Shown here: piece after piece, positions 12,883-57,969 of the stretch | Layout: each line of letters starts with the position of its first letter | How positions within the stretch are numbered: the first letter of the stretch is position 1 | Origin: a virus | Lineage: Duplodnaviria > Caudoviricetes | Direction: 5' to 3' (one strand) | Length of the DNA stretch: 64,000 nucleotides | IMG/VR virus record: IMGVR_UViG_3300022752_000063 | Location: 1,939 to 65,938 of that record | Position numbers and translations under genes: made by a program | Notes under the pieces: generated by a model | What the model was told of the DNA's origin: nothing | What the model saw: only the letters and a program-made list of their open reading frames with translations | Databases searched by the model: none

Positions 12883-13309
12883 ACTCGAGGATCAATAGTG
12901 CATCCGCCGTGGACAATGTCACGCTTAAATTTGGAAATCTTCTTTGTGCTTCCGCTTTCAGTTTGTTCTTCCATTCGCTCTTGCTTGCCATTCCTTTGCT
13001 GTTCCCCAAGCTCAAAGCCTTTTGCCAAGCTTGTGGTCGCACCATTTCAATTCTGTAACCGAGGGTCATCGCCACACCCAATATAAAACCAAAGCCACGA
13101 CCAAAGTTAAACATCGCCGAGCCCGGGCTCCCTGCTCCACCCACGTAGCCACCGACCTGCTCGATCACAATAACGTCGTGATAAGTCCGAAGATTCTTGA
13201 GTTTAGCCAACACGTCCCCTTCAGTCTCAGGCATCTTGATCGCGTCGACCATGCCGTTAATAGTTACGGAAGCGATACCTCCGCTGGCCCCGGGATCAAT
13301 AGCTACCAT
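12809..13309 (-). CDS. RuvC-like Holliday junction resolvase
   Basis: AIDPG..GGIA, IEQV, S.FNFG..FG, P..WQK and ADALLI motifs. Confidence 0.85.
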   Translation of the reverse strand: MVAIDPGASGGIASVTINGMVDAIKMPETEGDVLAKLKNLRTYHDVIVIEQVGGYVGGAGSPGSAMFNFGRGFGFILGVAMTLGYRIEMVRPQAWQKALSLGNSKGMASKSEWKNKLKAEAQRRFPNLSVTLSTADALLILEYGRHHLVRVAETGSGSAITKSSDK

Positions 13310-13367
13310 TCAAATCATCTCTTATAAAAAGAGTGGATTGCCAAGGGGATTCTGTTACCATCAGGTG

Positions 13368-18994: not shown

Positions 18995-21120
18995 TGCTAG
19001 TCGTACTGCCAGTCGGTCCACAGGATCGGGAACAGGCGGTTCGCTGGCTCAACTGGGTTGAGGAACTCGGTGGCATTGGTAGCCATCGTTTGATGGTTGC
19101 TTGTGCTAGGAGAGTACCCAATCCTACCGAGCTTAGCCGTAAATACGAACTTTACGTTCCGCACGACGAAGATGAACGTGGTTGGCCCATGAGCCCTAAT
19201 CATCTGTTCAAGAGGGTTGTACAGCATATTGCATGGGGGCCAAACCCAGAAGCTTTCTTTTGGTGCGAGCCCGATTGTATTCCTTTAATTCCCCAATGGA
19301 TTGATCGTCTGGATTCGGAATATCGGGAGTGCGGTCAGTATTTTATGGGGGCAAACGTGAAAGTAGCCGGGACTCCAGAGCATATGAGTGGTAATGCTAT
19401 TTACCCAAAGAATGTGATGGAACGGGCGTGGAATCTTATCCATGCAGATTTGGCTGCCTTTGACGTAGTTGGGGCAGAACAGATTGTTGGCCAAGCCCAT
19501 TGGACGAAATCAATACAACATGTCTGGCGCAAAGATCAGGGTCGTAACTTTACGTTCCCAGATCAGGCCAGCGTCGACGCCATGGTTAGCAAAGAAGCTG
19601 TGGTATTTCATCAAAACAAGGATGGCACTTTGATTGAAAGATTGAGAGAACGTTTATTAATAGAACCGAAAGCTACGGTGAAAAAAGTAAGTAAAACAAC
19701 AAAAAAGAAAAATCGGAAAATTCCGACTTTTGATTTGTTCTACACGACCTATCCAAAAGATAAACAGTGGTTTTCGTACAGTGTTCGTATTGCCAAGAAG
19801 AATTTATCAGGAATTCGTAATATTGTTGCAGTTGTCCGTGAGCAACATTTACAGGAATTTTTAGATTTAAATTTGGATGTAGTGTATAAAACTGTTCCCG
19901 ATTCTTGGAATTCTACTCGTGGATATCATTGGCAACAATGGATAAAGATGAGGGCTCCGGAGTTCACAGATGCTGATTTTATTGTTCACGTTGATAGTGA
20001 CACGTATTTCAAGGAGCCTGTAAATATTGAAGAGTTCTTTAAGGGGAAAAAGCCAGGATGGCTTTTTAGAAAATACTCCGAGCTCAATGTACCTTGGAAG
20101 CCAATTACGGAAAGAGTTCTTGGAAAAGAGTGTGATATTGAGTATATGCAAAGCTCCCCCTTTATCATAGGGCGAAATGTGTATGCCAAAGCCAAGGAAG
20201 TCCTTGAAGCCAATCATAAAATCACAATGGAAAAGTACATATACGATTCTGGCGTGACTGATTGGCCTCCAGGATTCTCTGAATATAATTTTTTAGGAAA
20301 TATTGCAAACGATTTTTTTAAGAACGACTATTTTTTTGTCCACGCAATAGATTCTGAAGTTCCCAAGGGATTTTCAAAAATTCATTTGTGTTGGAGTCAT
20401 TCTGATTTTTCAAAACAAGTTAATCTTTTAGAGGCTATGCTCTCTGGAGAAAAAGTTCAAAAACCCACTACTACTGGTCGCGGATTCTGGGTTCTTTCTA
20501 ACGACACCCATATTTCAGAATGGGTTGTTAAATACGAAAAGCTTGATTTTGACGGTCATCTTCTCCCACATATACTTGCTTTAATTAATCCGGGAGACTC
20601 AATTATAGACGTTGGTGCTTTTATTGGTGATCATACTTACGCATATGCTCTAAAGACACATGGGGTTTATACAGGAATGGTTCACGCTTTTGAGCCAAAC
20701 CCAGACGCTTTTATTTGTTTGGAAAACAACACAAAAGCTTTTTCTCATGTCAAACGGTATAATTTTGGTCTGGGTGACCGCGAAAGTACAGCAACTCTGC
20801 TTAAAAGTGATAACGCCGGAGCTTCTATGTTAACTCCCGGTGAAGGGATTCAAATTAAAAAACTAGACTCAATTAATATACCAAGACTCAACGGGATTAA
20901 AATTGACGCCGAGGGATTTGAATTAAAAGTTTTGATGGGTGCTGAGAAAACGATAGAGAAGTTTAAGCCTTGGTTAGTACTAGAATTCAATGAGCAAGCC
21001 CTTAAATTTAACCAAACTACTTCTAAAGATATCACTAAATGGTTGAATGATAGAGGCTATTCACAATTTAAAGAAATTGGATCTGGTGATTTAAAAGATG
21101 TTTTCTTCAAGGTGATATAG
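18994..21120 (+). CDS. Multidomain glycosyltransferase-like / FkbM methyltransferase fusion
   Basis: N-terminal GT-A-like segment (WCEPDCIP, H.SGNAIY); central DUF6492-like segment (GY..QQ.IK, VDSD, FSEY); C-terminal FkbM (DVGAFIG, FEPNP, KIDAEGFE). Confidence 0.8.
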   Translation: MLVVLPVGPQDREQAVRWLNWVEELGGIGSHRLMVACARRVPNPTELSRKYELYVPHDEDERGWPMSPNHLFKRVVQHIAWGPNPEAFFWCEPDCIPLIPQWIDRLDSEYRECGQYFMGANVKVAGTPEHMSGNAIYPKNVMERAWNLIHADLAAFDVVGAEQIVGQAHWTKSIQHVWRKDQGRNFTFPDQASVDAMVSKEAVVFHQNKDGTLIERLRERLLIEPKATVKKVSKTTKKKNRKIPTFDLFYTTYPKDKQWFSYSVRIAKKNLSGIRNIVAVVREQHLQEFLDLNLDVVYKTVPDSWNSTRGYHWQQWIKMRAPEFTDADFIVHVDSDTYFKEPVNIEEFFKGKKPGWLFRKYSELNVPWKPITERVLGKECDIEYMQSSPFIIGRNVYAKAKEVLEANHKITMEKYIYDSGVTDWPPGFSEYNFLGNIANDFFKNDYFFVHAIDSEVPKGFSKIHLCWSHSDFSKQVNLLEAMLSGEKVQKPTTTGRGFWVLSNDTHISEWVVKYEKLDFDGHLLPHILALINPGDSIIDVGAFIGDHTYAYALKTHGVYTGMVHAFEPNPDAFICLENNTKAFSHVKRYNFGLGDRESTATLLKSDNAGASMLTPGEGIQIKKLDSINIPRLNGIKIDAEGFELKVLMGAEKTIEKFKPWLVLEFNEQALKFNQTTSKDITKWLNDRGYSQFKEIGSGDLKDVFFKVI

Positions 21121-21152: not shown

Positions 21153-22454
21153 GTGCCAGCCTACTTTCCCGAGAATAACAATCCGCTCCCTTTGGACACG
21201 GAGGTCCGTTCGCTCCAAAAAATCAATGGTCTTTTAAAAGGTGGCATTGGAATTTCTCTTGCTAATACTGGCGTATCGGCTGATGCTTTTGGTCGTCTTC
21301 GTACTTCCAATCCTTTTACCTTATTTGACTCTAGCCATAGGTATCGTGATAACGATCTTTGGTCCACGTCTGCTACTGGTGGTAGCGCTACCTTCAATAC
21401 TAATCAAGGGCTTGTAGATCTTACAATTAACTCTACATCTGGGTCTAAAATCCTACGTGAGACAACCAAGGTTTTTTCCTATCAACCTGGTAAATCCCTA
21501 CTCATCCTTAATACTTTTGTTTTTGCCGGTGCTAAGACGAATCTCAGGCAAAGGGCTGGATATTTTGGCACAGACAATGGTTTATATCTTCAACTTGATG
21601 GGACTACTTTAAGTTTTGTCGAGAGAAGTCTCTCTACTGGAACTACCACCACCGTCAGTCAAGCTAATTGGAATGGCGACAAATTAGATGGCTCTGGTCC
21701 TTCTGGTTTTACTCTTGATATCTCCAAAGCTCAAATTATGTGGATGGATATTGAATGGCTTGGTCTTGGAACAGTCCGTCTTGGGTTTGTAATTAACGGA
21801 CAGTTTATCACTTGTCATTCTTTCCATCATGCCAATTTGATTTCTTCCACTTACATTACCACGGCCAGTCTTCCCCTTCGTCTTGAGATTGAAAATACGG
21901 GGACAACTTCTGGTTCAAGCACCCTGAAACAAGTATGCTCTTCTGTTGTTTCAGAAGGAGGATATCAATTGTTTGGCACTCAAAGAGCGGCTGGGACAGT
22001 AGTTACGTCCCCGTACAATATGGGAGTTGCTGGTACGTATTACCCCCTTGTGGCTATTCGTTTAAAGTCTACAAGGTTAGATTCCATAGTTATTTTGACA
22101 GCTCTATCTGTTTTGCCCGCTAGTTCTGGAAATTATAATTGGAGGGTTATGGCGTCAGGAACTACCACAGGAGGTACTTGGGCAGACCCAGGGTCGGATA
22201 GTTCCGTTGAATATAACATCACAGGGACTAGTTTTTCCGGTGGTCGGATACTGGCTAGTGGGTTTATCAGTCAGTCTAATCAATCCAACCCGTCCGTCGA
22301 TATTCTCAAAGAAGCTCTTTTTAGGTTTCAACTTGAACGCAATATATTTACCTCGACTCCTTACGAGATAACTCTTATAGCAGCCGCCCAAACTGTTGGG
22401 GGCGGTGGTAACAATATCTTTGCTTCCATGGATTGGGAAGAGATTTCTCGGTAG
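21153..22454 (+). CDS. Virion structural protein (beta-rich, probable decoration/appendage)
   Basis: DAFGRLRTSNP.TLFDS, YQPGKS and WLG.G.VR.GF motifs seen in aquatic phage structural proteins; T/S/G-rich. Confidence 0.7.
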   Translation: MPAYFPENNNPLPLDTEVRSLQKINGLLKGGIGISLANTGVSADAFGRLRTSNPFTLFDSSHRYRDNDLWSTSATGGSATFNTNQGLVDLTINSTSGSKILRETTKVFSYQPGKSLLILNTFVFAGAKTNLRQRAGYFGTDNGLYLQLDGTTLSFVERSLSTGTTTTVSQANWNGDKLDGSGPSGFTLDISKAQIMWMDIEWLGLGTVRLGFVINGQFITCHSFHHANLISSTYITTASLPLRLEIENTGTTSGSSTLKQVCSSVVSEGGYQLFGTQRAAGTVVTSPYNMGVAGTYYPLVAIRLKSTRLDSIVILTALSVLPASSGNYNWRVMASGTTTGGTWADPGSDSSVEYNITGTSFSGGRILASGFISQSNQSNPSVDILKEALFRFQLERNIFTSTPYEITLIAAAQTVGGGGNNIFASMDWEEISR

Positions 22455-36873: not shown

Positions 36874-37827
36874 ATGGGAAGTAAGAAACCACCTAAACCG
36901 CCACAGTTAGTAGCACCCAGACAAGTGCCACTTTCCGAAACATTTGGCACGTTCTTAGGGCAAAAGGAACAATTGCCCGATTTATTTGGTTTTGCAAGAA
37001 CATTAAATTTGGGTTTTAGGACAGAGTTAGAAACAGGACTTCCGGGAACTCTTGGCGCAGCACAGCAAACGACAAATTTGGTGAATCAATTGCTGTCTGG
37101 AACCCCTTCAGCGGACGTCCAAGCACAAGCCCAGCGACAATTAGCTGAACGAAATATGGCGGCAGGTTTGCCAGCTACCAGCCAAGCGGCAATTTTTGGT
37201 GAAGCGGCGTCGTATGGAAAAACATCGATGGACCTGCAAACTCAAGGCATGTCTGCCATCCCCGGGCTCTTGCAGATGTCCGAGTACTTAAGCCCGCAAC
37301 AGGCGCAAAATTATTTATTTTCCACGGGGCAGTTGCGGGGAGAACAGCTAAAAGCTGCTCAGGATGAGGCAAACATTGCGAATCAAAACGCAATGAACAA
37401 ATATAACTACGACGTGCAACAATCCCAGAGCCGTGGCGGTCTTGGCGGTACCATTGGCGGAATCCTCGGGGCAGTTGGCGGGTCATTCATTATGCCAGGA
37501 GTCGGAACCGCAATCGGAGGAATGCTTGGGTCTGGTATCGGAAGCGCTATTGGGGGTGGCGGATTTGCCCCAGGAGCTGGACAAGCTGGCGGACTTATCG
37601 CTCCGCTCGGACAGATGGCTTCTTCTTTTGTCGGCGGTGGGTTGATGGGTGGTGGCGGTGGTGCTTTGGGTATGCCGGGTATGAACTTAACTGGTTCTTC
37701 CACTCCTTCTTTCAATAGTCCGTTTTTTGGGAATGCCTCGAATCCGTTAAACAATTTCCTGAGTCCTTCAAACATGGGATCTTACGGAGGTCAATATCCG
37801 CTCTCTGTTGGCGGTATTAAGTTCTAA
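36874..37827 (+). CDS. Internal virion/ejection protein, Gly-rich
   Basis: MGSKKPP start; glycine-zipper GG..GG.LG repeats. Confidence 0.7.
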   Translation: MGSKKPPKPPQLVAPRQVPLSETFGTFLGQKEQLPDLFGFARTLNLGFRTELETGLPGTLGAAQQTTNLVNQLLSGTPSADVQAQAQRQLAERNMAAGLPATSQAAIFGEAASYGKTSMDLQTQGMSAIPGLLQMSEYLSPQQAQNYLFSTGQLRGEQLKAAQDEANIANQNAMNKYNYDVQQSQSRGGLGGTIGGILGAVGGSFIMPGVGTAIGGMLGSGIGSAIGGGGFAPGAGQAGGLIAPLGQMASSFVGGGLMGGGGGALGMPGMNLTGSSTPSFNSPFFGNASNPLNNFLSPSNMGSYGGQYPLSVGGIKF

Positions 37828-37828
37828 T

Positions 37829-39529
37829 ATGGCACAGGCTTATCAACTTCCGGGAGAATTCAGGGGTATCGACATGAGCGCGGCGGCGGCGGTAGCTGGC
37901 AACCAGACCGCCCGTGATCAGGAATCGATGAATAATTTCATCCGTCAATGGGATGCCACGACCAACATATTAAACGCCAACCGAATGCAGTCCCTGCGTG
38001 AACGCCAGTTCGCACAGGAGATGATCAATGCCGACCGTAATTTCCAACTCGCCAAAGACCAGCAGGAATACAACTTCCAAGCCGGACAGCGTGACTTTGA
38101 TTTAAAGAAAGAGTATCAGCAAGCTCAACTACGTAACTTTGATCTAAATGCCCAACAAGCTCAATGGGCTTTGCAAATTCAGAAAGAAACCTACAACAAC
38201 TCCCAAGAGGCTTTGCAGTTGGCCCCTTCATGGAAGGAAGAACTGGACCGCAGACTTGGACCCCAAGGTGCTTATGGGCCTAACGCTGAAAACGTCATGG
38301 CTGATTTTGTTTTGGAGAAGGGAATCAATCCCGGGTACAAGGCAGTTCTGGACCAGATGTTAATCCAGTATCGCCAAAGGGCTCAGAACTACCAAGAGAA
38401 TGTTTTTAATAAAACAATCGCCCAAGCTAAAACTTTACTTGGTACCGGTGAACTTGGGAATTTAAAGTTTACAGATCCGAATCTTCCAGAAGACGTCGGT
38501 CCTGTTTCTGGGAACTTTATTTTAGGCCAGCTAAAACAGGCCATGGCCCAAGGAAACATAGACGATATGCTGATGTATCAAGGAATGTTGCGGTCTGGAT
38601 TTGCGGACCTCGAGAAAGATAAGGCTCGTCGCCTACAGGAAGAGGCTACTATCAGGGCATCCAAGCTTGGCATACCGGTTGAGCAGGTTGATGTGAAGGG
38701 TGGTGAGATGAGCGTTCGATTCGAGACGCCTAAACTTGGGAGGGGTACCGGAACCGGTGCTGGTGGAACGGGTGGTACGGCACAAGAACGTGCGTACACC
38801 GAAACCAATATCACCGCAGTTAAGAACGCTGAAATTAACATGGATGCCGCCAAGCAAGCGTTTACCGCAGCTGATGAGGCGTTGAAAGATATTGATAAAA
38901 ATACCGCTGAATATCAACTCAAGGCTCAAGACAGGGATGAAGCCTACAATAAGTACCAGAATTGGAAAGCAATTTACGAGGATTCCGCAAGGAGGATGAG
39001 CCAACAACCCGATATCACCACGGGAAATAAACCTCAACCTAGTGCCACAACTCCTGCTCCTGCTAAAGAACAGACTGTTCCTTCGGGTGCCCCCAGCATC
39101 AAGGACATTCTCTCTGGTTCTGAGCAGGAGAAGGCAAAAGCTTCCCAGATTTCCCCTGTGACAACTCCCGATATAGCCAAAGAACTACTGAGCCCAACAG
39201 CACAAAGGCTGGAACGTGGGCTACAGGCAGCCGAAACGGTTGGTGGCATGGGTCTCGCAGTTGGAAAGGGATTAGCCAAAACTTTGGCCCCTCTACCAGC
39301 TCCTGTCCGGGCTGCTCAATTCGTATCTGAGGTGGCTCCTATGGTTGAAAGTGTGTCCAAGGATGTGAAACAACTAGCCGAAGTCCGTAGGCTTCGAGCC
39401 AAGGCTCAACTTGCGGCAAATGCTCGGGCAGCCAAGGGGGAAAACCCGACAAAAGCGTATCAAGAAGAGCTTGAAAAGGTTGTTGCAGACTACCGAGCCA
39501 AGAACCAACCCACTATTTCCGTAAGATAA
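37829..39529 (+). CDS. Internal virion/ejection protein
   Basis: Q/A-rich helical protein preceding the giant gene. Confidence 0.7.
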   Translation: MAQAYQLPGEFRGIDMSAAAAVAGNQTARDQESMNNFIRQWDATTNILNANRMQSLRERQFAQEMINADRNFQLAKDQQEYNFQAGQRDFDLKKEYQQAQLRNFDLNAQQAQWALQIQKETYNNSQEALQLAPSWKEELDRRLGPQGAYGPNAENVMADFVLEKGINPGYKAVLDQMLIQYRQRAQNYQENVFNKTIAQAKTLLGTGELGNLKFTDPNLPEDVGPVSGNFILGQLKQAMAQGNIDDMLMYQGMLRSGFADLEKDKARRLQEEATIRASKLGIPVEQVDVKGGEMSVRFETPKLGRGTGTGAGGTGGTAQERAYTETNITAVKNAEINMDAAKQAFTAADEALKDIDKNTAEYQLKAQDRDEAYNKYQNWKAIYEDSARRMSQQPDITTGNKPQPSATTPAPAKEQTVPSGAPSIKDILSGSEQEKAKASQISPVTTPDIAKELLSPTAQRLERGLQAAETVGGMGLAVGKGLAKTLAPLPAPVRAAQFVSEVAPMVESVSKDVKQLAEVRRLRAKAQLAANARAAKGENPTKAYQEELEKVVADYRAKNQPTISVR

Positions 39530-39567
39530 GATTGCCCTAATGGGCAATTTTTGGTATCTAGATTCTT

Positions 39568-42500
39568 ATGGCCGAGATACCCGAAGATATCCTGCAAAAT
39601 CCATTTGGAACGCAGGATCAGGGTACGGTTGACCTACAACAAGCCGACTTATTCAAGCAAGCGGCGGAGTATACCCCAGAACCAGTCGTTGAGGAAGCCC
39701 CTCAAGAACAAGGGTTTAAGACATGGAATGACTACAAGGCAGACCCTGACTTTGAGAAGCTGGATCAAGGTCAAAAACAGCAGTTGTTTGACCAATGGAA
39801 ACAATACTCCTTACAGCATCTCACCGAAATTGGTGCACTTAACACCGAGGATGATGCTAAAACGGCTGACGAATTCTTCTCCTCTATCGCCGATCAGGAA
39901 AAGCTAAAGAAATTTAGGACACAAGCCCCCACCTACGCAGAACAACTAATTGAACAGGGTCAGTCTGGGTTAAACTCCTTGCAGTCAGGAGTTGTTGGGT
40001 ACGGTGCCGCAATTGGTGCGGCTGATCCGGCAAAAGCCGCTGAACTTATCGCAACGAATAACTTAAAAACGCAGAGCCGATATGTAAGCCCTGAGATGAG
40101 GGAATACGGTTCTAAGAATCAAGGATTCTTTGAAGCCGCAAAAGATATTGTTACCAACCCTATCGACATTATGTTGCCAATGTTTGCCCAAAGCATTGGA
40201 TCAAATCTTCCCGCCATGGGTGCTTCGTTGGCTGCCGGCGGTGCGGCAACGGCTATCGGGACTCCAGCCGCAGGTGTGGCCGTTGGCTTGGGCACAAGTG
40301 CCGTATTGGGTGGCGTGACTGATACATTGGTCAGCTTTGACCAGTTGGTAAACGACGAGGTTCAGAAACGTGGATTAGATCCCTTGGACCCTAAGGCAAT
40401 TCAATCGGTCTTGGAAGACTCAGACTTTCAAAAGCAAGCCGTTGCCTACACGACGGCACGTGGGGTTGTCATTACCGGTACTGAATTGGGGGCTTTGGGC
40501 TTGGGTAAACTGATTGCCGCTCCCGCTGAAACAATCGCAAAGGCTGGGGTTGGAGGGTTAGCAAAAGAATTTGCGAAACAAGCCCCTGTTCAAGTCGTTA
40601 TGGAGGGAGTCGGAGAAACTGGAGCTCAAGTGGCTGGGAAAGTGGCAACAGGTGAAAAAATAAATGTAGATGCCAAACAAGTCGCTGAAGAAATTTTTGC
40701 TGGATTGCCAATGGCTGGTCTGGAAGGTGTGGGGGTCGCATATCATAGCCTGTTGGTAAACGATTCCCCCATGACAGCGGACGAAGTTCTCAGACAAAAG
40801 GTTGACGACTATAAGGCTGGGAAGTATTCTAAAATCCTCGGGCAAGAAGCTACGAACGATAATATTGAGAAGTTTTATAATGGGCTTACGATTGGGGAGA
40901 AGGCAAAAATTTTGGGCATTGAGGGAGAGAATGCAGTTCTAACAGGGGAACAGAATTTATTTAACACCCTGACACCAGAGGAAAAGACTAGAGCGACAGA
41001 AGCTTTTAAGGCTGGTCAATTAGAATTACTAAACCAACAGGCTCAAACTCCGATAAGTAAAGCAGAAGTTGCAACTGCTCCAGGTGCCGTTCCTCCGGTA
41101 CTCGAGCCACCAGTATTAAAAACCCAAGCTCCCGAATCTCCCGCTCCTGCTCCTACTCCAGCCCCAGCCCCGGCGGTTGCTGAAACACCTGCCCCACAAA
41201 CTCAAGCACCGGCTCCCGTTGCTGAAGCTCCTGCTCCTACCCTCGCACCGGAAACTCCTATTTCAACACCAGCAGAACCGTTGCCCGTAACTCCTGAGGC
41301 CAAAGCTACACTAGCGAAAACAGCACCAGCAACCGCCCAAGTCGTGAAAGCGGAAGAGGCTAAAGCTCCTGTCATTCCTACTCCACCTCCAATAACGCCG
41401 GCAACACAGCCTTTTGTAAGAGCCAAACCAATACGCACCCTTCAAGACGACATTGAGTATTACCAGCAACGTCTTGACGATCTATCATTGTTGGATAAAG
41501 CGGTTACGGTTGGCGATAGGGTTTTTGTTCCTGTTGGGGGGAAAAGAAAAATTGGTTTGGGGGAAACCTACGAATCCCAAAATGATGCTCAAAATGCTTT
41601 GTCTAAAATTCAAGGTAAGCCGGGATTTGAGAATGCTCAGATTAAACCCCTTCGGAATAACCTGTTTGAAGTTATTTGGGGAGATCAATCAATCTTGGAT
41701 AGCTGGAACAAAATGTCTGAGGAACAGTCAAAATTATCAAGGGAAAAAAAGAACAAATTGCTTCCTGACAGATGGAGATTTTTAGGTGATGCCCTTGGGT
41801 ATAAACAATCAAAAATTGATGAATTTGTAGCTCAAGGACTCCCACCTCAACCCACCAAAAAAACACAAATTAAATCTACTACGGCAGTAAAGAAACTACC
41901 TCCGACAAAGAAGCAAGCCCAAGCTCTTGCGAAGTTAGGGTATTTACCAGCGGACATTGAGGGGCTAGATAGAACTCAGGCAAAGGACATTCTCGCCAAT
42001 CAAATTGAAAAACAAAAAACCCAAGGTCTCGAAGCTCAAGCACCTGCCCCCGGACAGCCCGGAGTTGCACAAGCACAGCCAGCGGTTAGAGAAGCTGGTC
42101 AACCTGTGGCACCTACAGAGGGCGAACCAACCACCCAAGTCCCCGTCCAAGAGAGATTAGATAAAGCCAAAGCAGAACTAGAAGCCTTGGTCAAAAAGAT
42201 CGGGGCGGAACTTGGAGAGTTGGAATTGGATGCGGAATCGGTCTCGAGGTATTTTGGGGGCACACTCTCGCCCCAAAACGAACTTCAACTACGTGCTCTC
42301 CTTAACATCCTCAACCATGCACTTGCCAATGCCCAGCAAACATTGAAGGTGGCGGAGGGCAGGGGGAGGACAGACCTAAAGAAGACGTTCACTAATCTCA
42401 AGAAAGTTAAACTACGTAGGGAAGGTTACGGTGGTGGTGTGTACGCTAACCCCCGTGACGTGTTTAATTTGGATACTCTTTACGTTGACCCAGATCAACT

Positions 42501-45500
42501 GCTCAGAAGCTTTGCGAGCAGGGGAGTGTCCGATCCAGCCAGTTTCTTTGTTAAGGCTTTGTCCGAAGAAGTTCTCCACGCCAACCACGGGTTGGCCATG
42601 TATCAAGCTTTTCTTAAAACAAACCCAGCAGAAAAAACCCAAGAGGCTTTCCAAGCGTTTTACGACGCTCAGAACAAAGAGATTGAGAACAGCTTGTCCT
42701 TGGATCAGATTAAAGAGATCGTTGGCAAATACGCCCAAGCATTGGGCGTGACGTTCGAAGGCAAGACCAAAGAGCAGGTGATAGCGGAGTTTAACAAAGG
42801 CCGACCTGGTAGACTAGCTGAAGAATATCTCCGTGGTCTTATCCAGCAACGTCTAACTGGGAGCATTACGGAAGATACTCTCAAGGCGTTTGCCACTCGC
42901 CCGATCCTTCGTTCGTTAGGGACTTTGAGAAACTACTTCTCAAAACTGATTGGATTGGGGACTAAACGGGAAAGCCGTAAAACATATGTCGATAAATACT
43001 ACGACGCTATTGTCAGTCTGCTGACCAACAGCTCTCCTGCTGAAATACGTGCGGCCAGTGGGGAAAAGGGGACAGCAATACCGGGGAGCGAGTTGGCGTC
43101 CAGTATTGATCCGAATGCAATCCTTCAAGCTCAAGAGACTTCGGCTAACAAGAAAGCTTTGTATGATGAAGTTGCAAAAGAACTTGGCCCTAGAGATCCG
43201 GCGACGGGAGAAGGTGGATTGTGGAGGAGATCCGTTATCGGGGCTTTGAAGAAAGCTTTCCGCACAACCGACCCAGATGAGGTTGAGTCTCTTGTGTACG
43301 CTTCCATACCAGAAGCGGTGGAAACATTCAACGAAGAGTCTGGCACCAAGTTTTCCACATATCTGTTCCAAATTGCCAGACAGAAAATTTTAGAGGAAAA
43401 GGAAAAGATGGCACGGCGTCAAGCTGTAGAAGTCAGTCTACAAGCCCCAGGATTTGTCCCGACGTCTTCTGAAGAAGTACAAGCTGAGAAAGAGGCTGAA
43501 GCTATTCAGAGCACAAAAGAAGATTTAACCTTGGGACAACTTGAAGATCGAGTATCACCAGAAGTTGCGCCCAAGAATTTGGAAGAAGAGTTGAAGACAG
43601 TTGAGCAAAAGATTGACACGGGAATCGAGAAAGAAACCGCCCAAGAAATGGGGACTCTACCTACAAATATTGCGGATGAAGAACAAGAGATCGAGGAAGT
43701 TAACTTGGCTGACGGAGAACAGATTTCTTCCGTTGACGCCGAGATTGCAAATAAACGTACGGCTAGGATGGAGGCGGAACTTGGTGAAGCTGGAAAACTG
43801 TTGGCTAACGCGGCAAGGAAGCTTGGCCTTACCAAGATGGAAGTGGATATCCTTAACTTCACAGCCGACCCTAAATCCTCGCCTTTGACCCGAGCCCAGT
43901 TGAGCGACAAGTATGGGCTGAACAATATTGATTTTGATGAAATCCGTGACGATGTGATCCGCAAGATGCGGGAACAATTGGTGGCGGGCGGTGTGACTAA
44001 GACGGCTGACGTGTTGGCATCTTCTATAGATCCGAACGCCATATCAATCCCACAGGACGATGTCTTTGTTAAGAAGTATCAAACCTTGGCGAAACAACTG
44101 GATGAAAAGGGAATGAGCATTTTGGCTCCGGAAACCAATGGGTTTAACCGAGTATTCAAACAAGAAAAAGCAACTGACGCGATTAAGATTTTGGAGAGGG
44201 GCGGATTAAATGTGGAGAGGGCTTTAAATAGAATTGTAGATAACTATTTTGATGAAAACGGAAATAAACAATTTGCTTCTATTGACGAGGCAAGACCGAA
44301 AGAAAATGAACTATTCGGGGATTGGCTAAAGCGTTTGGATATTCAAGACTACGAATCTACTTTTGAGCCACGAGTCTACGATGATGAGTTTAATTTAATC
44401 GGAAAGAAACCGAATTTATTTGGATCTCTCGGTTTGAAGTATGATGTTAACTCACCGAGAGTAATAGAAATAATCCCGCCAGTAGCTACTAAAACAAATA
44501 TTCCTTTGGCATCCTCGATCGACCCGAACTACACCCAATCTTTAAACCGAGCCCTTCGAACCATGCCGGAAGATGTGGTCAAGGCATTGTCTGAACGCAC
44601 ATACATTCCTTTTGAAGACGAGGACTTGGTTGCCAAAGCCAACAAGTTTGTGGATGACAACTCACCTGGTGGGGATGTCATGCATGCCAAACGGATCTTG
44701 GATGGCGTCCAGAATATGCCGTTCCAAGACCGAGTCGTTACGCTGGGGGTTATCGGAAAGAGACTACGCAACGCTTTGTTCGCCCATGTTGCCCGCATGG
44801 AAGCCAAGGGAACCACTCCTGAAGGACAGGCTCTACGGCAGTACCTATCCAACAATCTTACCGAGGTCCTATCTCGGGCACAGGATCTTGGGACAAGAGC
44901 AGGACAAGACTTGCGGTCGTTGCGTACGCTGGCCTCGATGTTCCTGCCTTACGAAGTCGCCAAGCTTTATACCGGACCAATTTCTGAACAACAGAAATCA
45001 GCCTTGGCCCACAAGGAAGAAGTGACAAACCTATTGGCAGAGATTGAGAAGTTAAAGGCTACGATTGCTGGGTTGGCAATTGATGAAGCCGTAGGAAAAG
45101 TTTTACCTCCTTTAAAACCAGGTGGGGTTTCTTATGCCCCTCCAGCGGATAGTAATTTCTTTAAACTCTTGTCCGCATTTGGAGATTTGGCTCCCCTTGA
45201 GAACGAGACTTTTGAAGCGTACCTGCAACGCATTGGTATCCCGTACGACGAATTAATGTTGGCCTTGGAAGACTCCAGAGCCGCTGCTGTAGGACCAGAA
45301 GGTGTTGCCCCGGTCGACTTCAAGAAGCTATCCGCTTCCGAAGCCATCGAGAAGCTGTTGGCCAAGGACAAGAATCTATTCAGCAAGCTTGTGGCTCTCC
45401 GTCTCAAGACTAATAGGGGTTCCGAGACGGCTGTCGTCCAAGAGAACTTTACGAAACGTAAAGCTGATGCTCCCGCCCTCAAGCAACGTAACCAAGCCTT

Positions 45501-48495
45501 GCAGTTGGTATTTGATTTCTTCAACACAACCCAGAGCGAGAAGCCCTCGTCGCAAGAACCAGTTGAGACAGCCAAGGATAATCTTCCTCCGCTGGTTCGC
45601 TTGGCCAAGTATGCCTCGGACGTAATCACCGAGAGGGTTATCCGTTCTCTTGGTGTAACCAAGGAGAACATGCCAAAAGGGTCTTTCGAGAAGCTGGAGA
45701 ACCAAGTTCGCAAGATGGTGAACGCTCAGTTCAAACAAGAACTTGATCCCAAGAAGGCGGCAACGGAAGATACTCGGCCGGCGGAACAACGACTACTCGA
45801 CATGGTGCAGAGGATCAAGCTGGCGGAACAAGTATTCAACGAGGTGCAGACCAACCTCCAGGGCCAGCTCAATGAGGACAACCGAATCATTGACGCGGGT
45901 GCCGAAGGACGTCTTTCGCCCGAGCAACGTAAAAACCTGGAAGAACTGATAGCCAAGAAGTTTGATGCTGGCAAAGTAGCTGGCGTAGACGGCTTGCTTA
46001 AGAAGATAATTGATTTCAAAGCCGAAGCCCGCAAACACATGACCAAGCGTGGGGCAAGTCTGCAATCAATCTTGGCCTTAATCAAAGAGAAGTTGCCGGA
46101 GTTGTCCGAGCAACAGGCAAGCGATCTGGCTACTCAGATGGCGAAACGGTACGAAGAGATTGTTAAGAAGGACGGGCAACGCCAACTGGAGAATATCGTA
46201 AAGCGTGTTGGCGAGAGGGCTTCCAGAGACCCCAAGACCACAATGCAACAGCTCATGGAGTTGGTTAACCTTGGGGCTTTCGATGAAGAGAAATTTTATA
46301 ATGCCATCGCGGATCGCTTCAACCTGCCAACTTGGGACCCAGCGGTCGTCGAAAAGATCAAGGGTATTGCGGATCAAATGGAGAGAATGCCGGAAGGTTC
46401 CGATCAGAGAGCCACTAAAGGGGCGGAACTTCAAGCCTTCATTGCAGAAGAATTGCACAAGCAAGAGAAGGGTTGGGATGCGGTTGGGCGAAAGCTGGAT
46501 GTGGCAGCCGCTATTTGGAAAGCCGGTGTATTGTCCGGACCACCGACACAGTTGGTTAACTTGGGAGCCACTCATCTAAATGTGTTGTTTGAATTGTTGA
46601 CTGAAGCCCGAGCCTACTATAAGGCATCCAAAGCATTGGGTAAGAAGGCCACCTTCGGAGAGTTTTTCAACGATGCGCTCAACGCATACGTCCAAGCAGT
46701 CGGGAAGATGGGCGTCGAGCAAGCTAGCGACGCTTTCGCCACAGGGTTGTCCAGGTTTAGGAACGAAACCCAATCACAACTTTCACCGCTGGAGATGATG
46801 AAATTTGATACGACCAAGCCTTGGAATTATAAGAATTACCTTGCTTCTTGGAAGATCGTCGGTCGTGCCATGGCTGCGGCAGATACTTACAATTCCGTTA
46901 TTGCAAACGAAGCTAAGACCAGAATGGCCGCTAGGTATTCGATGATGAAGGATGGTCTGACTTCCCAACAGGCGACCAAGAAGATGGACGAATTGTTCAA
47001 TGCCTTCAGCCCTGGAATGAAAGCCATTGAAGAACAGGTCAATAAGGAAGAAGCGTCGGGACAGTTCGGAACATTGGCGGGTCTTAAACCTAACACCATG
47101 GAATACAATAGCCAGAAAAGAAAGATTGAAGCTGGAAGACGGCGTCGGTATTTGCAGTTGAGGGAACAATTCATCGCCAATGAAAGCAAGATTGGAAGCG
47201 AAGGTATAGCTAAGATCCGTAACTTCACGCAGAAAGCAACGTTCAACAATCAACCCACTGGTATGATTGGATACTTGGGTGAAGCCGTGATCGGACAGGT
47301 TGCTGGGAAAACCAAGCTTCTTACCCCGTTTGCCGCGTTCCCTCGGACGATTGCCAACATTATCAACTCCAGTTTGGACTACACCCCGTATGGTTGGGCG
47401 CGGGCAAACGGATTCTCATTGGGGAATCTCAGCCCATTCATCCGCAACTCTAGCTACGCTTTCGAAAAGCCGGAGAAGGGAAGCGTTGAGTACCACCAGC
47501 TACAAGCCAAAGCTTTCTTCGGCTCGCTCATCACCTTCTCGATTATTGGAATGGCTATGAAGGATATGGATAAGGATTGGGACGAAGCTTATTTTGCTGT
47601 GACTGGACGCGGACCTACAGACCCTAACAAACGTGAGCAACTTCGCCAATCAGGATGGACTGAGAACACGGTTAAGATCGGACCTCTGCGGTTTAAACAC
47701 ACCGACTTCCCCGGGTTGAACTTGGTATTCGGATCTCTCGCCTTGGTATCCGACCAATGGAGATACGGTAAACTATCTGAGAAAGACTTTGGGACTGTAG
47801 CTGCAACTGCTGCCCTCTCGGTAGGAAATACAATCCTAGATAAAAATTTGTTGTCTGGGGCCAAGGTATTGTTCGACGCGGTATCTGATGGCGGAGACCC
47901 TGGTGATAAAGCCAAGAGACTTCTTCAGAGCTATACCGGAGGGTATCTCAATCCGGGGATGGCGAGATGGTTGACCAAGACTTTGAACATTGGGCCGGAC
48001 GGAAAGGTCAAAGTGGTGGACTATAAGGAACTCAACTCGACCACGGGTGGTTGGTTGGTCGGTCAGACACCTTTGGCCGTGGTATTTGGCAAGCCTATGT
48101 TGAATCGCTTGGGCGAGGAGATCAGGGATTATCCTTGGACCGCCACGTCCAAACGTCTCGGGTTCCTGCCCGAAGTTAAAGAACACCCCGTGTTTACCCC
48201 GCTTATCAAAGCTGGGTTGTTTGTCCCTGGGGTTAGCATTAATTCAAAGATTAAAGATTTTAAAGGTGGAAAGATGGAACAGAGGAAGATGACTCGCGAG
48301 GAGTACTACGATTATTCCAAGTACGATGGCGAGTATCTCAAGCGAATCCTCACGCCATCCATGGCTAAAGCGTTGGCGACGCAAGCAATCCGAGACCAAG
48401 CGGGGGCCCAAAAAAGACTGGAAAACTTGGCCCAACAGTCCAAGAACTACGCTATTACTCGGATCGAAGCGCAGATCCGGTCAGCGAAAAAATAA
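39568..48495 (+). CDS. Giant internal virion (polyvalent) protein, 2975 aa, with zincin-like and sigma70-like domains
   Basis: Uninterrupted ORF at the last ejection-protein position; EEVLH...LAEEYL zincin-like segment; AVETFNEESGTKFSTY sigma region 2-like motif; region 4-like HTH; three LASSIDPN repeats. Confidence 0.85.
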   Translation: MAEIPEDILQNPFGTQDQGTVDLQQADLFKQAAEYTPEPVVEEAPQEQGFKTWNDYKADPDFEKLDQGQKQQLFDQWKQYSLQHLTEIGALNTEDDAKTADEFFSSIADQEKLKKFRTQAPTYAEQLIEQGQSGLNSLQSGVVGYGAAIGAADPAKAAELIATNNLKTQSRYVSPEMREYGSKNQGFFEAAKDIVTNPIDIMLPMFAQSIGSNLPAMGASLAAGGAATAIGTPAAGVAVGLGTSAVLGGVTDTLVSFDQLVNDEVQKRGLDPLDPKAIQSVLEDSDFQKQAVAYTTARGVVITGTELGALGLGKLIAAPAETIAKAGVGGLAKEFAKQAPVQVVMEGVGETGAQVAGKVATGEKINVDAKQVAEEIFAGLPMAGLEGVGVAYHSLLVNDSPMTADEVLRQKVDDYKAGKYSKILGQEATNDNIEKFYNGLTIGEKAKILGIEGENAVLTGEQNLFNTLTPEEKTRATEAFKAGQLELLNQQAQTPISKAEVATAPGAVPPVLEPPVLKTQAPESPAPAPTPAPAPAVAETPAPQTQAPAPVAEAPAPTLAPETPISTPAEPLPVTPEAKATLAKTAPATAQVVKAEEAKAPVIPTPPPITPATQPFVRAKPIRTLQDDIEYYQQRLDDLSLLDKAVTVGDRVFVPVGGKRKIGLGETYESQNDAQNALSKIQGKPGFENAQIKPLRNNLFEVIWGDQSILDSWNKMSEEQSKLSREKKNKLLPDRWRFLGDALGYKQSKIDEFVAQGLPPQPTKKTQIKSTTAVKKLPPTKKQAQALAKLGYLPADIEGLDRTQAKDILANQIEKQKTQGLEAQAPAPGQPGVAQAQPAVREAGQPVAPTEGEPTTQVPVQERLDKAKAELEALVKKIGAELGELELDAESVSRYFGGTLSPQNELQLRALLNILNHALANAQQTLKVAEGRGRTDLKKTFTNLKKVKLRREGYGGGVYANPRDVFNLDTLYVDPDQLLRSFASRGVSDPASFFVKALSEEVLHANHGLAMYQAFLKTNPAEKTQEAFQAFYDAQNKEIENSLSLDQIKEIVGKYAQALGVTFEGKTKEQVIAEFNKGRPGRLAEEYLRGLIQQRLTGSITEDTLKAFATRPILRSLGTLRNYFSKLIGLGTKRESRKTYVDKYYDAIVSLLTNSSPAEIRAASGEKGTAIPGSELASSIDPNAILQAQETSANKKALYDEVAKELGPRDPATGEGGLWRRSVIGALKKAFRTTDPDEVESLVYASIPEAVETFNEESGTKFSTYLFQIARQKILEEKEKMARRQAVEVSLQAPGFVPTSSEEVQAEKEAEAIQSTKEDLTLGQLEDRVSPEVAPKNLEEELKTVEQKIDTGIEKETAQEMGTLPTNIADEEQEIEEVNLADGEQISSVDAEIANKRTARMEAELGEAGKLLANAARKLGLTKMEVDILNFTADPKSSPLTRAQLSDKYGLNNIDFDEIRDDVIRKMREQLVAGGVTKTADVLASSIDPNAISIPQDDVFVKKYQTLAKQLDEKGMSILAPETNGFNRVFKQEKATDAIKILERGGLNVERALNRIVDNYFDENGNKQFASIDEARPKENELFGDWLKRLDIQDYESTFEPRVYDDEFNLIGKKPNLFGSLGLKYDVNSPRVIEIIPPVATKTNIPLASSIDPNYTQSLNRALRTMPEDVVKALSERTYIPFEDEDLVAKANKFVDDNSPGGDVMHAKRILDGVQNMPFQDRVVTLGVIGKRLRNALFAHVARMEAKGTTPEGQALRQYLSNNLTEVLSRAQDLGTRAGQDLRSLRTLASMFLPYEVAKLYTGPISEQQKSALAHKEEVTNLLAEIEKLKATIAGLAIDEAVGKVLPPLKPGGVSYAPPADSNFFKLLSAFGDLAPLENETFEAYLQRIGIPYDELMLALEDSRAAAVGPEGVAPVDFKKLSASEAIEKLLAKDKNLFSKLVALRLKTNRGSETAVVQENFTKRKADAPALKQRNQALQLVFDFFNTTQSEKPSSQEPVETAKDNLPPLVRLAKYASDVITERVIRSLGVTKENMPKGSFEKLENQVRKMVNAQFKQELDPKKAATEDTRPAEQRLLDMVQRIKLAEQVFNEVQTNLQGQLNEDNRIIDAGAEGRLSPEQRKNLEELIAKKFDAGKVAGVDGLLKKIIDFKAEARKHMTKRGASLQSILALIKEKLPELSEQQASDLATQMAKRYEEIVKKDGQRQLENIVKRVGERASRDPKTTMQQLMELVNLGAFDEEKFYNAIADRFNLPTWDPAVVEKIKGIADQMERMPEGSDQRATKGAELQAFIAEELHKQEKGWDAVGRKLDVAAAIWKAGVLSGPPTQLVNLGATHLNVLFELLTEARAYYKASKALGKKATFGEFFNDALNAYVQAVGKMGVEQASDAFATGLSRFRNETQSQLSPLEMMKFDTTKPWNYKNYLASWKIVGRAMAAADTYNSVIANEAKTRMAARYSMMKDGLTSQQATKKMDELFNAFSPGMKAIEEQVNKEEASGQFGTLAGLKPNTMEYNSQKRKIEAGRRRRYLQLREQFIANESKIGSEGIAKIRNFTQKATFNNQPTGMIGYLGEAVIGQVAGKTKLLTPFAAFPRTIANIINSSLDYTPYGWARANGFSLGNLSPFIRNSSYAFEKPEKGSVEYHQLQAKAFFGSLITFSIIGMAMKDMDKDWDEAYFAVTGRGPTDPNKREQLRQSGWTENTVKIGPLRFKHTDFPGLNLVFGSLALVSDQWRYGKLSEKDFGTVAATAALSVGNTILDKNLLSGAKVLFDAVSDGGDPGDKAKRLLQSYTGGYLNPGMARWLTKTLNIGPDGKVKVVDYKELNSTTGGWLVGQTPLAVVFGKPMLNRLGEEIRDYPWTATSKRLGFLPEVKEHPVFTPLIKAGLFVPGVSINSKIKDFKGGKMEQRKMTREEYYDYSKYDGEYLKRILTPSMAKALATQAIRDQAGAQKRLENLAQQSKNYAITRIEAQIRSAKK

Positions 48496-49283: not shown

Positions 49284-50306
49284 ATGGCAGATTCATTTGT
49301 TGACGCGGTAAACAAGAAGGCTTCCGGTGGGAATGCCATTGTGCCAGAGGCTTTGGATTTGGTGAAGACTTTTGAGTCTTTCAAGCCAACGTCCTACTAT
49401 GATATTGATAATAAGAAGAAACGTGGAACGCTCACCGTGGGTTATGGATTTACGAAGCATGATATCCCAGAGATCCGGGAAGGGTATTCAATTGACAAGG
49501 CGACGGCCGAAAAAATGTTGCCAGACCTGATCAAGAACAAATACGCCACGGCAGTCAAAGAAAAGGTAAAGGTTCCGCTGAACGACCAACAATATAGCGC
49601 ATTGTCCAGCTTTGCTTACAACGTGGGGCCAACCAATTTCTCTTCGAGCACCTTGTTGAAGAAGCTAAACTCCGGCGATTACGAGGGGGCGGCAAATGAA
49701 TTTAAAAGGTGGAACAAAGCGGATGGGCAAACTCTAGAAGGACTTACCCGAAGACGGGCGGCAGAGGAAGCTTTGTTTAAAGGGGATGTGATGGGTCTTG
49801 GGTCTATCCTAGAGAAACAAAAGTTTGGTGGTGTCCAACCAAAGAAGAAAGGCGGAATGGCTGACGTTGGAGATTCTTTTATAAACTCCATGAGTCAATC
49901 CGATTTGGCTAAGGCAGTAAGTGCTCCAATCGGAGCTGGGGGAAGCCCAGATAATCCGCCAGTTCCAATAACGTCTGAGGCATTAACCCCCCTACCAGAT
50001 TCTCCGGAAGAAACCGGAGCTAAAGCTGCTGAACAAGTTGCCAAGAATATGGAAACTCCTGAAGAGGCGGGAAAAACAGCGGCAGAAAAGATTGCCAAAA
50101 ATGTTGAAGATAAAAAAGACCAACCAGATATGAGTTTGGCAAAAGCTTTTGAAGATTTGGCTAAAGGTTTTACACAGGAAGGATCACAAGAAAAAACTCA
50201 GGCTAAAGAGGAGAAACCTATTATGAAAAACGTAACGTTTAACACTCCGGTAACAGGTGTTATTCAATCGGGTCTTCGCCGACGTTCCGGATTGGGGGCT
50301 AGGTAA
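49284..50306 (+). CDS. GH24 (T4-type) lysozyme with long disordered C-terminal extension
   Basis: FE......Y.D......T.GYG.T catalytic triad; AL.SFAYNVG; RWNKA.G..L.GL.RRR..E. Confidence 0.9.
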   Translation: MADSFVDAVNKKASGGNAIVPEALDLVKTFESFKPTSYYDIDNKKKRGTLTVGYGFTKHDIPEIREGYSIDKATAEKMLPDLIKNKYATAVKEKVKVPLNDQQYSALSSFAYNVGPTNFSSSTLLKKLNSGDYEGAANEFKRWNKADGQTLEGLTRRRAAEEALFKGDVMGLGSILEKQKFGGVQPKKKGGMADVGDSFINSMSQSDLAKAVSAPIGAGGSPDNPPVPITSEALTPLPDSPEETGAKAAEQVAKNMETPEEAGKTAAEKIAKNVEDKKDQPDMSLAKAFEDLAKGFTQEGSQEKTQAKEEKPIMKNVTFNTPVTGVIQSGLRRRSGLGAR

Positions 50307-56834: not shown

Positions 56835-57551
56835 TTAGGTTCCTTTCTTATTGGTTTTGTTGTAACCCGTCCAGCCTAATTTCTTTAAGGCGGACACCGC
56901 CTTGGATGCCAGACTGCCAGCGGGTTGAGTGCCATGGATGAGGAGGGCGAACGACTTGCCAGACTTGTAAGCATGGCTGTCGTCGTGATCGATCTCCAAT
57001 CCCTTGGCCTTGGCATCGGCCTCGCTAAACACAACCTCGGCGGACTTCAGATTGTGGGCTTCGATCAACCAGTCATGGATACCGCCACGGCTGGCGTTGA
57101 GGGCGAAGTTCTTGGGTATCTCACCAAGCTTGCTCACCCACAGATGAAGGCTCTTGGTGTAGGCATAGAAGGTACGCAACGGATTCTTCCGTGCGACTTC
57201 CATCCAAGCATCGAAGTAGGACTCATTGAAGAAGTCACCCGACACATGGACACGGATGAGGTTGGCCTTCTTGGGAAGGCTGGCCTCGATCAGTTGCACC
57301 ATCTGCTCGGTCGTTTTGCCCTTGAGCAGATCAAAGTTGTACCAGCGTTGCTCCCGCACCGCAGGGTATTGGGCTTCGGCAGATGCGGCAAAGCATCGGA
57401 ACTTGGTTTCCAATCCATCTTGGATTCCACTTCCGTTGCGTCCAGCTCGGGACAAACATTCCCTCGCACCGGGGCAGGAGTAACCTGCGGGTAGGCTGAA
57501 GGTGAAGATGTCGTTGCCGAGCTTGGCATTACCTCGATTGAACTTAAGCAT
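56835..57551 (-). CDS. GP88-family (radical SAM-like) protein
   Basis: GN.KL....F.LPAG..CP....C...CFA, R.H.SGDF and YAYTK motifs. Confidence 0.8.
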   Translation of the reverse strand: MLKFNRGNAKLGNDIFTFSLPAGYSCPGARECLSRAGRNGSGIQDGLETKFRCFAASAEAQYPAVREQRWYNFDLLKGKTTEQMVQLIEASLPKKANLIRVHVSGDFFNESYFDAWMEVARKNPLRTFYAYTKSLHLWVSKLGEIPKNFALNASRGGIHDWLIEAHNLKSAEVVFSEADAKAKGLEIDHDDSHAYKSGKSFALLIHGTQPAGSLASKAVSALKKLGWTGYNKTNKKGT

Positions 57552-57969
57552 TGAAGAACCTTTCTTTCCATTGCTGGAATGTTGGGGGTGTAAGATTGTC
57601 TCCGATATTCTGGATGACTTCACATAGATACTGGATGGTGGACAAGTAGTTGCCGTGGGTTTCCAAGTCCAAACTACCGCTGGCCAAGGCCGGCGTTATC
57701 CTCCACTCGTTCTCTCGATATCGAATGTCGGTATGCAACTTGCCTATCGAATCAAAGCTACCGCCTTGATACTGAGTACAAGCCGTATACTTGTAGGTAA
57801 GACGGACTGATTTATATTCGTCCTTCCACCCTTCAGAACGGACTGTGATTTTGTTATCTGGAAAGTCTCCCGTCCGTGTGCTGGATGAGATGACTTCGTC
57901 CACGATGATGTGTCTGTTGAGGAGCTTCGCCAACGCTCCAGATTTAACGGCGATGGGTAATAGTTTCAT
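57544..57969 (-). CDS. Hypothetical protein
   Basis: GAAAGGA RBS before MKLLPI. Confidence 0.65.
   Translation of the reverse strand: MKLLPIAVKSGALAKLLNRHIIVDEVISSSTRTGDFPDNKITVRSEGWKDEYKSVRLTYKYTACTQYQGGSFDSIGKLHTDIRYRENEWRITPALASGSLDLETHGNYLSTIQYLCEVIQNIGDNLTPPTFQQWKERFFNA

Follow-up and report, generated by a model that had tools for sequence, protein, structure and literature searches.

Can a bacteriophage in whose genome no RNA polymerase gene is recognised bring a ready-made sigma factor into its host as part of a virion protein? This question is raised by one gene of an uncultured phage (Caudoviricetes), represented by the 65,938 bp IMG/VR record IMGVR_UViG_3300022752_000063 (completeness rating 93%). 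The window analysed here comprises bases 1939–65938 of that record (64,000 nucleotides), and coordinates are given as window positions. A giant open reading frame (ORF) at 39568..48495 on the + strand remains open across 2,975 amino acids (aa); it lies in a block of structural genes and encodes a polyvalent protein devoid of cysteine. The preliminary description of this DNA, made from the sequence alone, saw a sigma70-like factor in this protein and proposed that the phage packages and injects it, redirecting host RNA polymerase from the moment of entry. We show that the giant protein contains a sigma-70-family module bracketed by repeated junction peptides, and we propose, tentatively, that this module would reach the host core polymerase together with the phage DNA.

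A minimal sigma-70-family module in a giant phage protein

Both peptides on which the preliminary description relied were found, starting at aa 1237 and aa 1421, and the distance of 184 aa from start to start agrees roughly with the 170 aa that it gave. Its start at 43117 had to be moved slightly outwards, as the natural limits of the module run from one LASSIDPN peptide to the next, at 43093–44013 (aa 1176–1482). A region 1.2-like helix and a sigma2 domain with regions 2.1–2.4 (aa 1184–1293, 43117..43446, + strand), recognised by the Pfam r2 profile, by VIA and by hhalign, are followed by an acidic linker of 104 aa (aa 1294–1397, 43447..43758, +), which is predicted to be disordered from its low predicted local distance difference test (pLDDT) values and its composition. 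A sigma4-like helix-turn-helix follows (aa 1398–1475, 43759..43992, +; hhalign columns 240–304 and VIA), so that region 1.2–2.4, linker and region 4 are colinear. The VSL motif reported between the two parts is at aa 1289, within EVSLQAPGF, and the acidity of the linker was borne out by its 28 acidic and 9 basic residues. Both ends of the linker, SLQAPGF and LADGExISSxDAEIANK, are invariant in an alignment of 11 modules, and the first helix of the module aligns in VIA with region 1.2 of the primary sigma factors 4x8k_A and 4ki2_B.

Evidence for sigma identity from the single sequence is marginal. With a Pfam cut-off of 24 bits, Sigma70_r2 scored 25.1 bits on the fragment and 27.9 bits in a six-frame search of the genome, and PHROG 351, 'RNA polymerase sigma factor', was matched with an E-value of 2.1e-5.

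At the level of the family, the sequence evidence is clear. Twenty-nine giant proteins have the segment, and 11 of the module sequences were aligned (alignment A2). When the A2 profile was compared with PDB sequences, 8 of the 11 matches at E ≤ 10 were sigma factors, the best being WhiG (E 0.001); regions 2 and 4 were colinear in the alignments of the family profile with WhiG and RpoS. Searched against 1.84 billion representatives, the family profile retrieved 23 proteins, 10 of which were giant relatives or their fragments and 13 short proteins of 187–345 aa. Sigma70_r2 was present in all 13 short proteins, Sigma70_r4 in six and Sigma70_r4_2 in five, and among the 1.84 billion representatives there was no free-standing homologue closer than E 1.5e-5. 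Comparison of the module family with these 13 short proteins, which are genuine sigma factors, by hhalign gave a probability of 99.2% and an E-value of 1.2e-19 over 167 columns, in an alignment that spans module residues 46–118 and 240–304, that is, both region 2 and region 4. The sigma2 and sigma4 patterns do therefore occur in the order first described, and form a genuine and complete minimal module of the sigma-70 family.

Structure prediction pointed in the same direction. The AlphaFold model of the module had a mean pLDDT of 69, with values of about 80–95 for residues 1–110 and about 80–89 for residues 231–300, and below 50 for residues 139–211. Among the 50 matches listed by Foldseek against the PDB, all were sigma factors or holoenzymes by title (three at E ≤ 0.001); 49 of the 50 listed by VIA were likewise sigma or holoenzyme entries. 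Examples in VIA were domain 2 of Taq sigma-A for sigma2 (3ugo_A, Z 7.8, root-mean-square deviation (rmsd) 1.9 Å, 64 residues) and the sigma4 domain of SigF for sigma4 (8jzt_E, Z 7.2, rmsd 2.5 Å, 69 residues). A search of BFVD with the sigma model returned nothing at E ≤ 0.001; the 50 matches listed there comprised 19 named phage sigma factors, 19 nameless proteins and 12 other proteins. As to a likeness with the extracytoplasmic function (ECF) class, the ECF sigma chains 6dv9_F and 6kon_F aligned across both module domains in VIA, no region-3 family was matched, the linker is not short and Pfam Sigma70_ECF was unmatched.

Three of these comparisons count against a sigma factor. On the whole protein, Sigma70_r2 scored 22.1 bits, under the cut-off. 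The Pfam profiles Sigma70_r4 and Sigma70_r4_2 did not match the module, so that of the two Pfam domains looked for on the advice of the preliminary description, Sigma70_r2 appeared at its cut-off and Sigma70_r4 did not. Finally, all VIA Z scores were below 8 and are rated middling for helical folds; since none reached 8, the fold evidence supports the sigma case and does not carry it. Taking the profile comparisons together with these points, we consider it practically certain that aa 1176–1482 are homologous to the sigma-70 family.

Junction peptides, an exchangeable slot and conservation of the module

The module is flanked by a conserved junction peptide, L-A-S-S-x-D-P. The window protein contains three copies in the form LASSIDPN, at aa 1176–1183 (43093..43116), aa 1483–1490 (44014..44037) and aa 1647–1654 (44506..44529), all on the + strand; the three copies differ in their codons, which indicates that selection acts on the peptide. 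Of 62 carriers, 56 had a relaxed form of the motif on either side of the module, three had it at the start only, one had it at the end only and two at neither end. Even a clade whose modules have diverged to about 30% identity keeps the motif, as in TLSASTDPM and QLSASIDPV, and giant proteins that lack the module had zero or one chance match. In three genomes, the strict motif appeared nowhere outside the giant ORF, which means that it is not a prohead-protease site of the general kind that capsid or scaffold proteins would also carry.

Junctions 2 and 3 enclose an additional segment in the window protein, a variable cassette of 156 aa (aa 1491–1646, 44038..44505, +) of no recognisable family: no Pfam or PHROG family matched it, and the ESM Atlas gave for a 164-aa query a score of 0.81 only, which is uninformative. 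An extra cassette at this place was observed in 9 of 29 close relatives, in at least five different lengths or sequences, and was absent from the other 20. One relative (P0013) has a cassette of 156 aa, as in the window, with like junctions; the cassettes of other relatives measure 164, 254, 338 and 232 aa. The 232-aa cassette, in P0022, is an ART-PolyVal domain (E 8.7e-15, aa 1627–1795) located between junctions at 1587 and 1819. In P0032 the module is followed by a segment that resembles RNA_pol_A_CTD (PF03118; aa 1547–1591, 26.8 bits for a cut-off of 23.8), and precomputed Pfam assignments place RNA_pol_A_CTD-like segments also in P0061, P0063, P0064, P0079 and P0081. This alpha-CTD-like segment (CTD, C-terminal domain) is a second polymerase-derived domain within one polyprotein.

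The domain directly upstream of the first junction (aa 845–1175, 42100..43092, +) is a candidate for the protease that would process these junctions. It was found in 64 of 84 giant proteins, with invariant E-E-x-x-H and GRLAEEY motifs, the former at aa 1000–1004 in the window protein (42565–42579). Its AF2 model was of good quality (pLDDT 81, predicted template modelling score 0.81). Among 48,161 chains aligned to this model by VIA, just five reached Z ≥ 5 (5.2–5.8), and all five are zinc metallopeptidases: two PepO chains, ECE-1, AsaP1 and a Grifola peptidase, in alignments that stop at the EExxH helix. Pfam detected no peptidase in the giant protein. Iyer et al. (2017) proposed that a metallopeptidase domain cuts polyvalent proteins into units after their delivery (PMC5512222), and a weakly zincin-like domain at this position would fit that proposal.

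Compared with an 85%-identical relative in locus L005, the module had a proportion of nonsynonymous differences (pN) of 0.088 and of synonymous differences (pS) of 0.709, and pN was down to 0.033 in sigma4; synonymous sites were saturated in this comparison (pS 0.71). As judged from these sequences, the module is under purifying selection. It is also widely distributed. The C-terminal region is common to 83 giant proteins; among 84 giants longer than 1,500 aa, the module was detected in 62, always near residues 1,000–1,700, and its carriers range down to 47% identity in the C-terminal region. The 22 giants that lack it are P0055–57, which have ART-PolyVal according to precomputed Pfam assignments, and 19 distant proteins with at most 33% C-terminal identity.

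Two further parts of the window protein complete its layout. A DUF6302 domain lies near the N-terminal side (aa 628–709, 41449..41694, +; Pfam 35.7 bits, cut-off 27.2), and everything downstream of junction 3 (aa 1655–2975, 44530..48495, +) is the conserved C-terminal region, the common core of the family.

Proposed virion cargo, the host polymerase and alternative roles of the module

Is the giant protein carried by the virion? Its gene belongs to the structural block on the + strand, a short way ahead of the gene for the lysozyme. The 17 other ORFs counted contain 77 cysteines in 9,067 aa (0.85%) and the giant protein none in 2,975 aa; 11 relatives of the giant protein that were checked had none or one. 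Two ORFs directly upstream (36874–37827, 317 aa, and 37808–39529, 573 aa, both +) and the lysozyme ORF (49284–50306, +, 340 aa) are likewise without cysteine. This cysteine-free set may represent ejection proteins that cross the envelope, as cysteine avoidance would fit a protein that passes the envelope unfolded. The last 430 or so residues of the giant protein match the C-terminal end of a 1,121-aa protein of podovirus MW202801.1 at 26% identity (E 3e-24); the gene of that podovirus protein precedes the endolysin gene and follows that of a 'phage stabilization protein'. Precomputed Pfam assignments place SNF2 or RadC domains in proteins that are more distantly related through the C-terminal core. 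In the ESM Atlas, the C-terminal 1,328 aa matched unnamed viral clusters; the nearest named match, LPD38 at 0.95, is a lead only. On the strength of its place in the structural block, its lack of cysteine, the C-terminal domain shared with a podovirus and the ART-PolyVal domain of its relatives, we consider it reasonably probable that the giant protein is virion cargo.

The C-terminal region contains an invariant D-M-D-K-D-W-D run (aa 2666–2672, 47563–47583), which follows a hydrophobic stretch and falls in a 24-aa insertion that the MW202801.1 homologue lacks; it could be a metal-binding site. The idea of a virion RNA polymerase hidden in the C-terminal region was considered and set aside, as this DxDxDxD pattern is in the 24-aa insertion and no PDB polymerase was matched by the profile; with the full-length family profile, no polymerase was found among PDB sequences at E ≤ 1.

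The absence of an RNA polymerase gene, remarked on in the preliminary description, extends to the whole 65.9-kb record, in which PF00562 and PF00623 gave no match under conditions where their controls did; PF00940 gave no match either, a result that is uninformative because its control was detected nowhere. This record and three related ones each contain a single Sigma70_r2-like site, always inside the giant ORF. With its only sigma-like module in a protein of the virion block and no RNA polymerase gene, the phage may bring its own promoter-selection subunit with its DNA.

Docking on the host core enzyme was modelled by co-folding module residues 1–125 with residues 200–400 of Synechococcus elongatus RpoC1. 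The score was 0.77 (median of three runs), compared with 0.00 for the controls (best of three). Of 80 solved complexes, 58 attain this mark, as do 2 of 110 mismatched pairs, counts that apply only roughly here because our own alignment was used. The runs agreed in at least 89% of their contacts, and the pLDDT of the partner was at least 83. The predicted contacts pair module residues 60–73 with RpoC1 residues 280–308, which corresponds to the canonical mode of binding between region 2.2 and the clamp helices. As complexes between sigma and beta-prime have already been solved, the pass may reflect likeness (recall) and not binding. For the contact with core polymerase suggested in the preliminary description, this in silico co-fold with a stand-in RpoC1 indicates a likeness at the beta-prime clamp helices.

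These observations can be assembled into a model in four steps. As an ejection or cargo protein, the giant protein would be packaged inside the capsid and would exit it along with the DNA. It would then be cut at the L-A-S-S-x-D-P junctions, probably by the zincin-like EExxH domain directly upstream, and this cleavage would release the sigma module, as well as the adjacent effector cassette in those proteins that have one. The sigma module, freed or still tethered, would dock on the beta-prime clamp helices of the host core polymerase, and the polymerase would be steered, or at least captured, on behalf of the phage ahead of all phage gene expression. Taken as a whole, this chain, in which a minimal sigma cassette is packaged, ejected, released at its junctions and acts on the host core at entry, is a serious possibility that we put forward tentatively; the packaging, injection and cleavage of the giant protein, the binding of the module to the core and its choice of promoters are each inferred from the features described above. 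The more specific form, in which a ready-made sigma factor is injected, cut out by a built-in zincin-like protease and loaded before phage expression, as a sigma-only counterpart of the phage N4 system, is more doubtful. In that form, the ART or alpha-CTD-like co-cargo of relatives would complete an injected kit for the takeover of transcription.

Several observations weigh against injection of a functional sigma factor. The likeness of the upstream domain to zincins is weak: Foldseek found nothing at E ≤ 1e-3 for this domain, and in its EExxH motif the first His of HExxH is replaced by Glu. The residues of the predicted clamp-helix interface vary from clade to clade. The partner used for co-folding is a stand-in, the host being hinted at solely by one cyanomyovirus-like gene. 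Megablast with the giant gene revealed no close cultured relative and no near match in the phage collection. A sigma factor encoded in a late-looking operon could equally work in the cell that produces the phage. Finally, promoter reading itself is in question. The recognition helix of region 4 has a net charge of −2 in this clade and 0 in more distant clades (the 13 genuine sigma factors have 0 to +8 over their last 40 aa), and the positions that are basic in RpoS face N, D and E in the module alignment; as far as sequence can tell, an acidic recognition helix argues against canonical −35 reading. A count of k-mers upstream of genes in three genomes (35, 35 and 30 regions) uncovered no phage-specific promoter motif shared between them; the weak signals in this genome were ATCTAG (4 observed, 0.45 expected) and CTTGAC (4 observed, 0.71 expected).

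The acidic recognition helix without the basic residues of RpoS, the failure of the Pfam r4 models and the lack of a specific promoter motif would all be expected if the module were a polymerase dock or decoy, in which sigma2 grips the host core and no promoter-specific −35/−10 reading takes place; the contact predicted by co-folding is precisely the sigma2/clamp-helix interface. A dock of this kind, cut free or still attached to the ejection complex, might keep the polymerase at the site of DNA entry, where transcription would draw the genome into the cell, or might sequester it for host shut-off. This alternative leaves aside the behaviour of sigma4, which shows the strongest constraint within the module (pN 0.033) and is colinear across clades, and of the linker motifs, which are invariant beside both domains. 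Together, these features suggest that the whole sigma architecture is in use, and we regard a role as a dock or decoy as rather unlikely.

Unlikely, too, is a late sigma factor made by way of a polyprotein, which would be cut in the producing cell and would drive or boost late transcription there, with only the C-terminal core, or nothing, packaged, so that no sigma factor would reach the next host. Junction peptides and a possible in-cis protease suit any polyprotein, and to our knowledge the characterised phage sigma factors are all made after infection. The gene lies in a late-looking + strand structural block and is preceded at 39532–39560 (+) by a promoter-like TTGCCC-17-TATCTA, which ends seven bases before the ATG; like pairs of hexamers occur before 15101, 28000, 31265, 48773 and 51832. 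If used as a promoter at this distance from the ATG, TTGCCC-17-TATCTA would yield near-leaderless transcripts. A late sigma factor encoded only inside a late gene would, however, face a bootstrap problem, the neighbouring slot is occupied in relatives by ART-PolyVal, which takes its name from injected polyvalent proteins, and the absence of cysteine from all 2,975 aa, module included, is left unexplained for a purely cytoplasmic factor.

An exapted sigma fold with no role at the polymerase, serving as a structural or DNA-binding spacer in a capsid or ejection complex, would agree with the middling Z scores and with interface residues that vary between clades, but is improbable, as the similarity extends beyond the fold to sequence profiles, the alpha-CTD-like or ART-PolyVal domains beside the module in relatives suggest a theme of transcription hijack, and the module passed in the co-fold while every control scored 0.00.

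Genome context and comparison with known systems

The + strand block around the giant ORF includes a gene for a tail-fibre-like protein, and the left side of the window carries replication genes on the minus strand (family A DNA polymerase, helicase, DUF2800 and a primase-like protein). A protein encoded in the same + strand block, at 21153–22454 (+, 433 aa), is 66–68% identical to a 'virion structural protein' of the cyanomyoviruses S-RIM8, S-RIM12, S-RIM50 and S-WAM2; it matched 178 phage records, 130 of which are named Synechococcus. The DNA polymerase, in contrast, is at most 27.5% identical to any entry of the phage collection. At the level of sequence, this disparity hints that the host is a marine cyanobacterium and that unrelated cyanophages have exchanged genes.

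A tblastn search with the giant protein gave a single match, distant and C-terminal, and related loci in a viral contig collection numbered one and later three. When genome contigs were scanned with the module alignment for prophage copies, 56 stretches fitted the pattern and none was confirmed. Distant relatives and the shorter matching proteins bear only the name 'hypothetical protein' or are nameless fragments. In Pfam and PHROG searches over the other scanned ORFs, no portal, terminase or ejection protein was matched, and no second sigma-type regulator. The ORFs at 13197–15065, 15101–17377 and 17702–18994 (all +) had no Pfam or PHROG match at E ≤ 0.001; they occupy the sites expected for terminase, portal and scaffold, and the head module is, to judge by its proteins, very divergent. 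Independently of the giant protein, the ORFs at 18994–21120 (+), 1858–2451 (−) and 56835–57623 (−) encode two FkbM-type methyltransferase domains and a GP88-family protein (E 1.4e-42); one of the two FkbM-type domains is fused to DUF6492, within the head gene block.

How does this protein compare with known virion proteins that act on transcription? The virion RNA polymerase of phage N4, gp50, is a capsid-borne protein of about 3,500 aa that is expelled along with the DNA, which allows early transcription to begin before any new protein is made. The window protein is similarly giant and, as we propose, would similarly be ejected. N4 brings a whole single-subunit polymerase, whereas the phage studied here would bring only the specificity subunit for the host enzyme.

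With polyvalent proteins (PMC5512222, main text), the window protein shares the build of a giant multi-domain protein encoded beside virion genes, and its relatives have ART-PolyVal. It assembles unrelated domains: DUF6302, the zincin-like domain, the sigma module, the cassette and the C-terminal core. It differs in that Pfam finds none of MPTase-PolyVal, MuF, LPD or ART-PolyVal in it and that EExxH takes the place of HExxH; the passages of PMC5512222 consulted make no mention of the L-A-S-S-x-D-P junction. The word 'sigma' is absent from the main text of that paper, and the supplementary domain tables of the paper may list one. The preliminary description knew of no characterised example of this arrangement, and our search of the literature likewise brought up no paper that describes a sigma factor as part of a virion or ejection protein. 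The bracketing by junction peptides, the zincin-like neighbour, the variable slot, the absence of cysteine and the clamp-helix co-fold are new here.

Free-standing phage sigma factors provide another comparison. The module has the two-domain, sigma2–sigma4 build of the phiEco32 gp36 and SU10 factors, which, in the account consulted, belong to phages without a polymerase of their own that redirect the host enzyme. In SU10, the phiEco32-type sigma factor is described as a middle gene product, of which one peptide was detected in a particle preparation among many non-structural proteins (PMC4281155); a single peptide in such company is not evidence of packaging. Free-standing phage sigma factors are encoded by separate genes, measure about 180–430 aa and are expressed post-infection, whereas the sigma cassette described here is part of a 2,975-aa protein of a structural block and contains an acidic linker of about 100 aa.

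A packaged protein that modifies the host polymerase on entry is represented by the ADP-ribosyltransferase (ART) Alt of T4, as summarised in the main text of PMC5512222. Like Alt, the giant protein may be capsid cargo meant for the host polymerase at infection, and its relatives have an ART beside the sigma module. The analogy has a limit: Alt is an enzyme that modifies the polymerase, and the cargo of the window phage would be a subunit that joins it.

The known ways in which phages take over transcription are sigma factors made post-entry, an injected polymerase (N4, phiKZ) and injected modifying enzymes (T4 Alt). The family described here is widespread in metagenomes, from which 62 distinct module-bearing giants were retrieved, and constitutes a defined polyprotein system, in which the junction peptide recurs, a candidate protease lies in cis and the effector slot is exchangeable. 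If the sigma module is indeed virion cargo, it would represent a fourth takeover route, by which a phage that has neither a polymerase nor an early sigma gene could control transcription as soon as infection begins.

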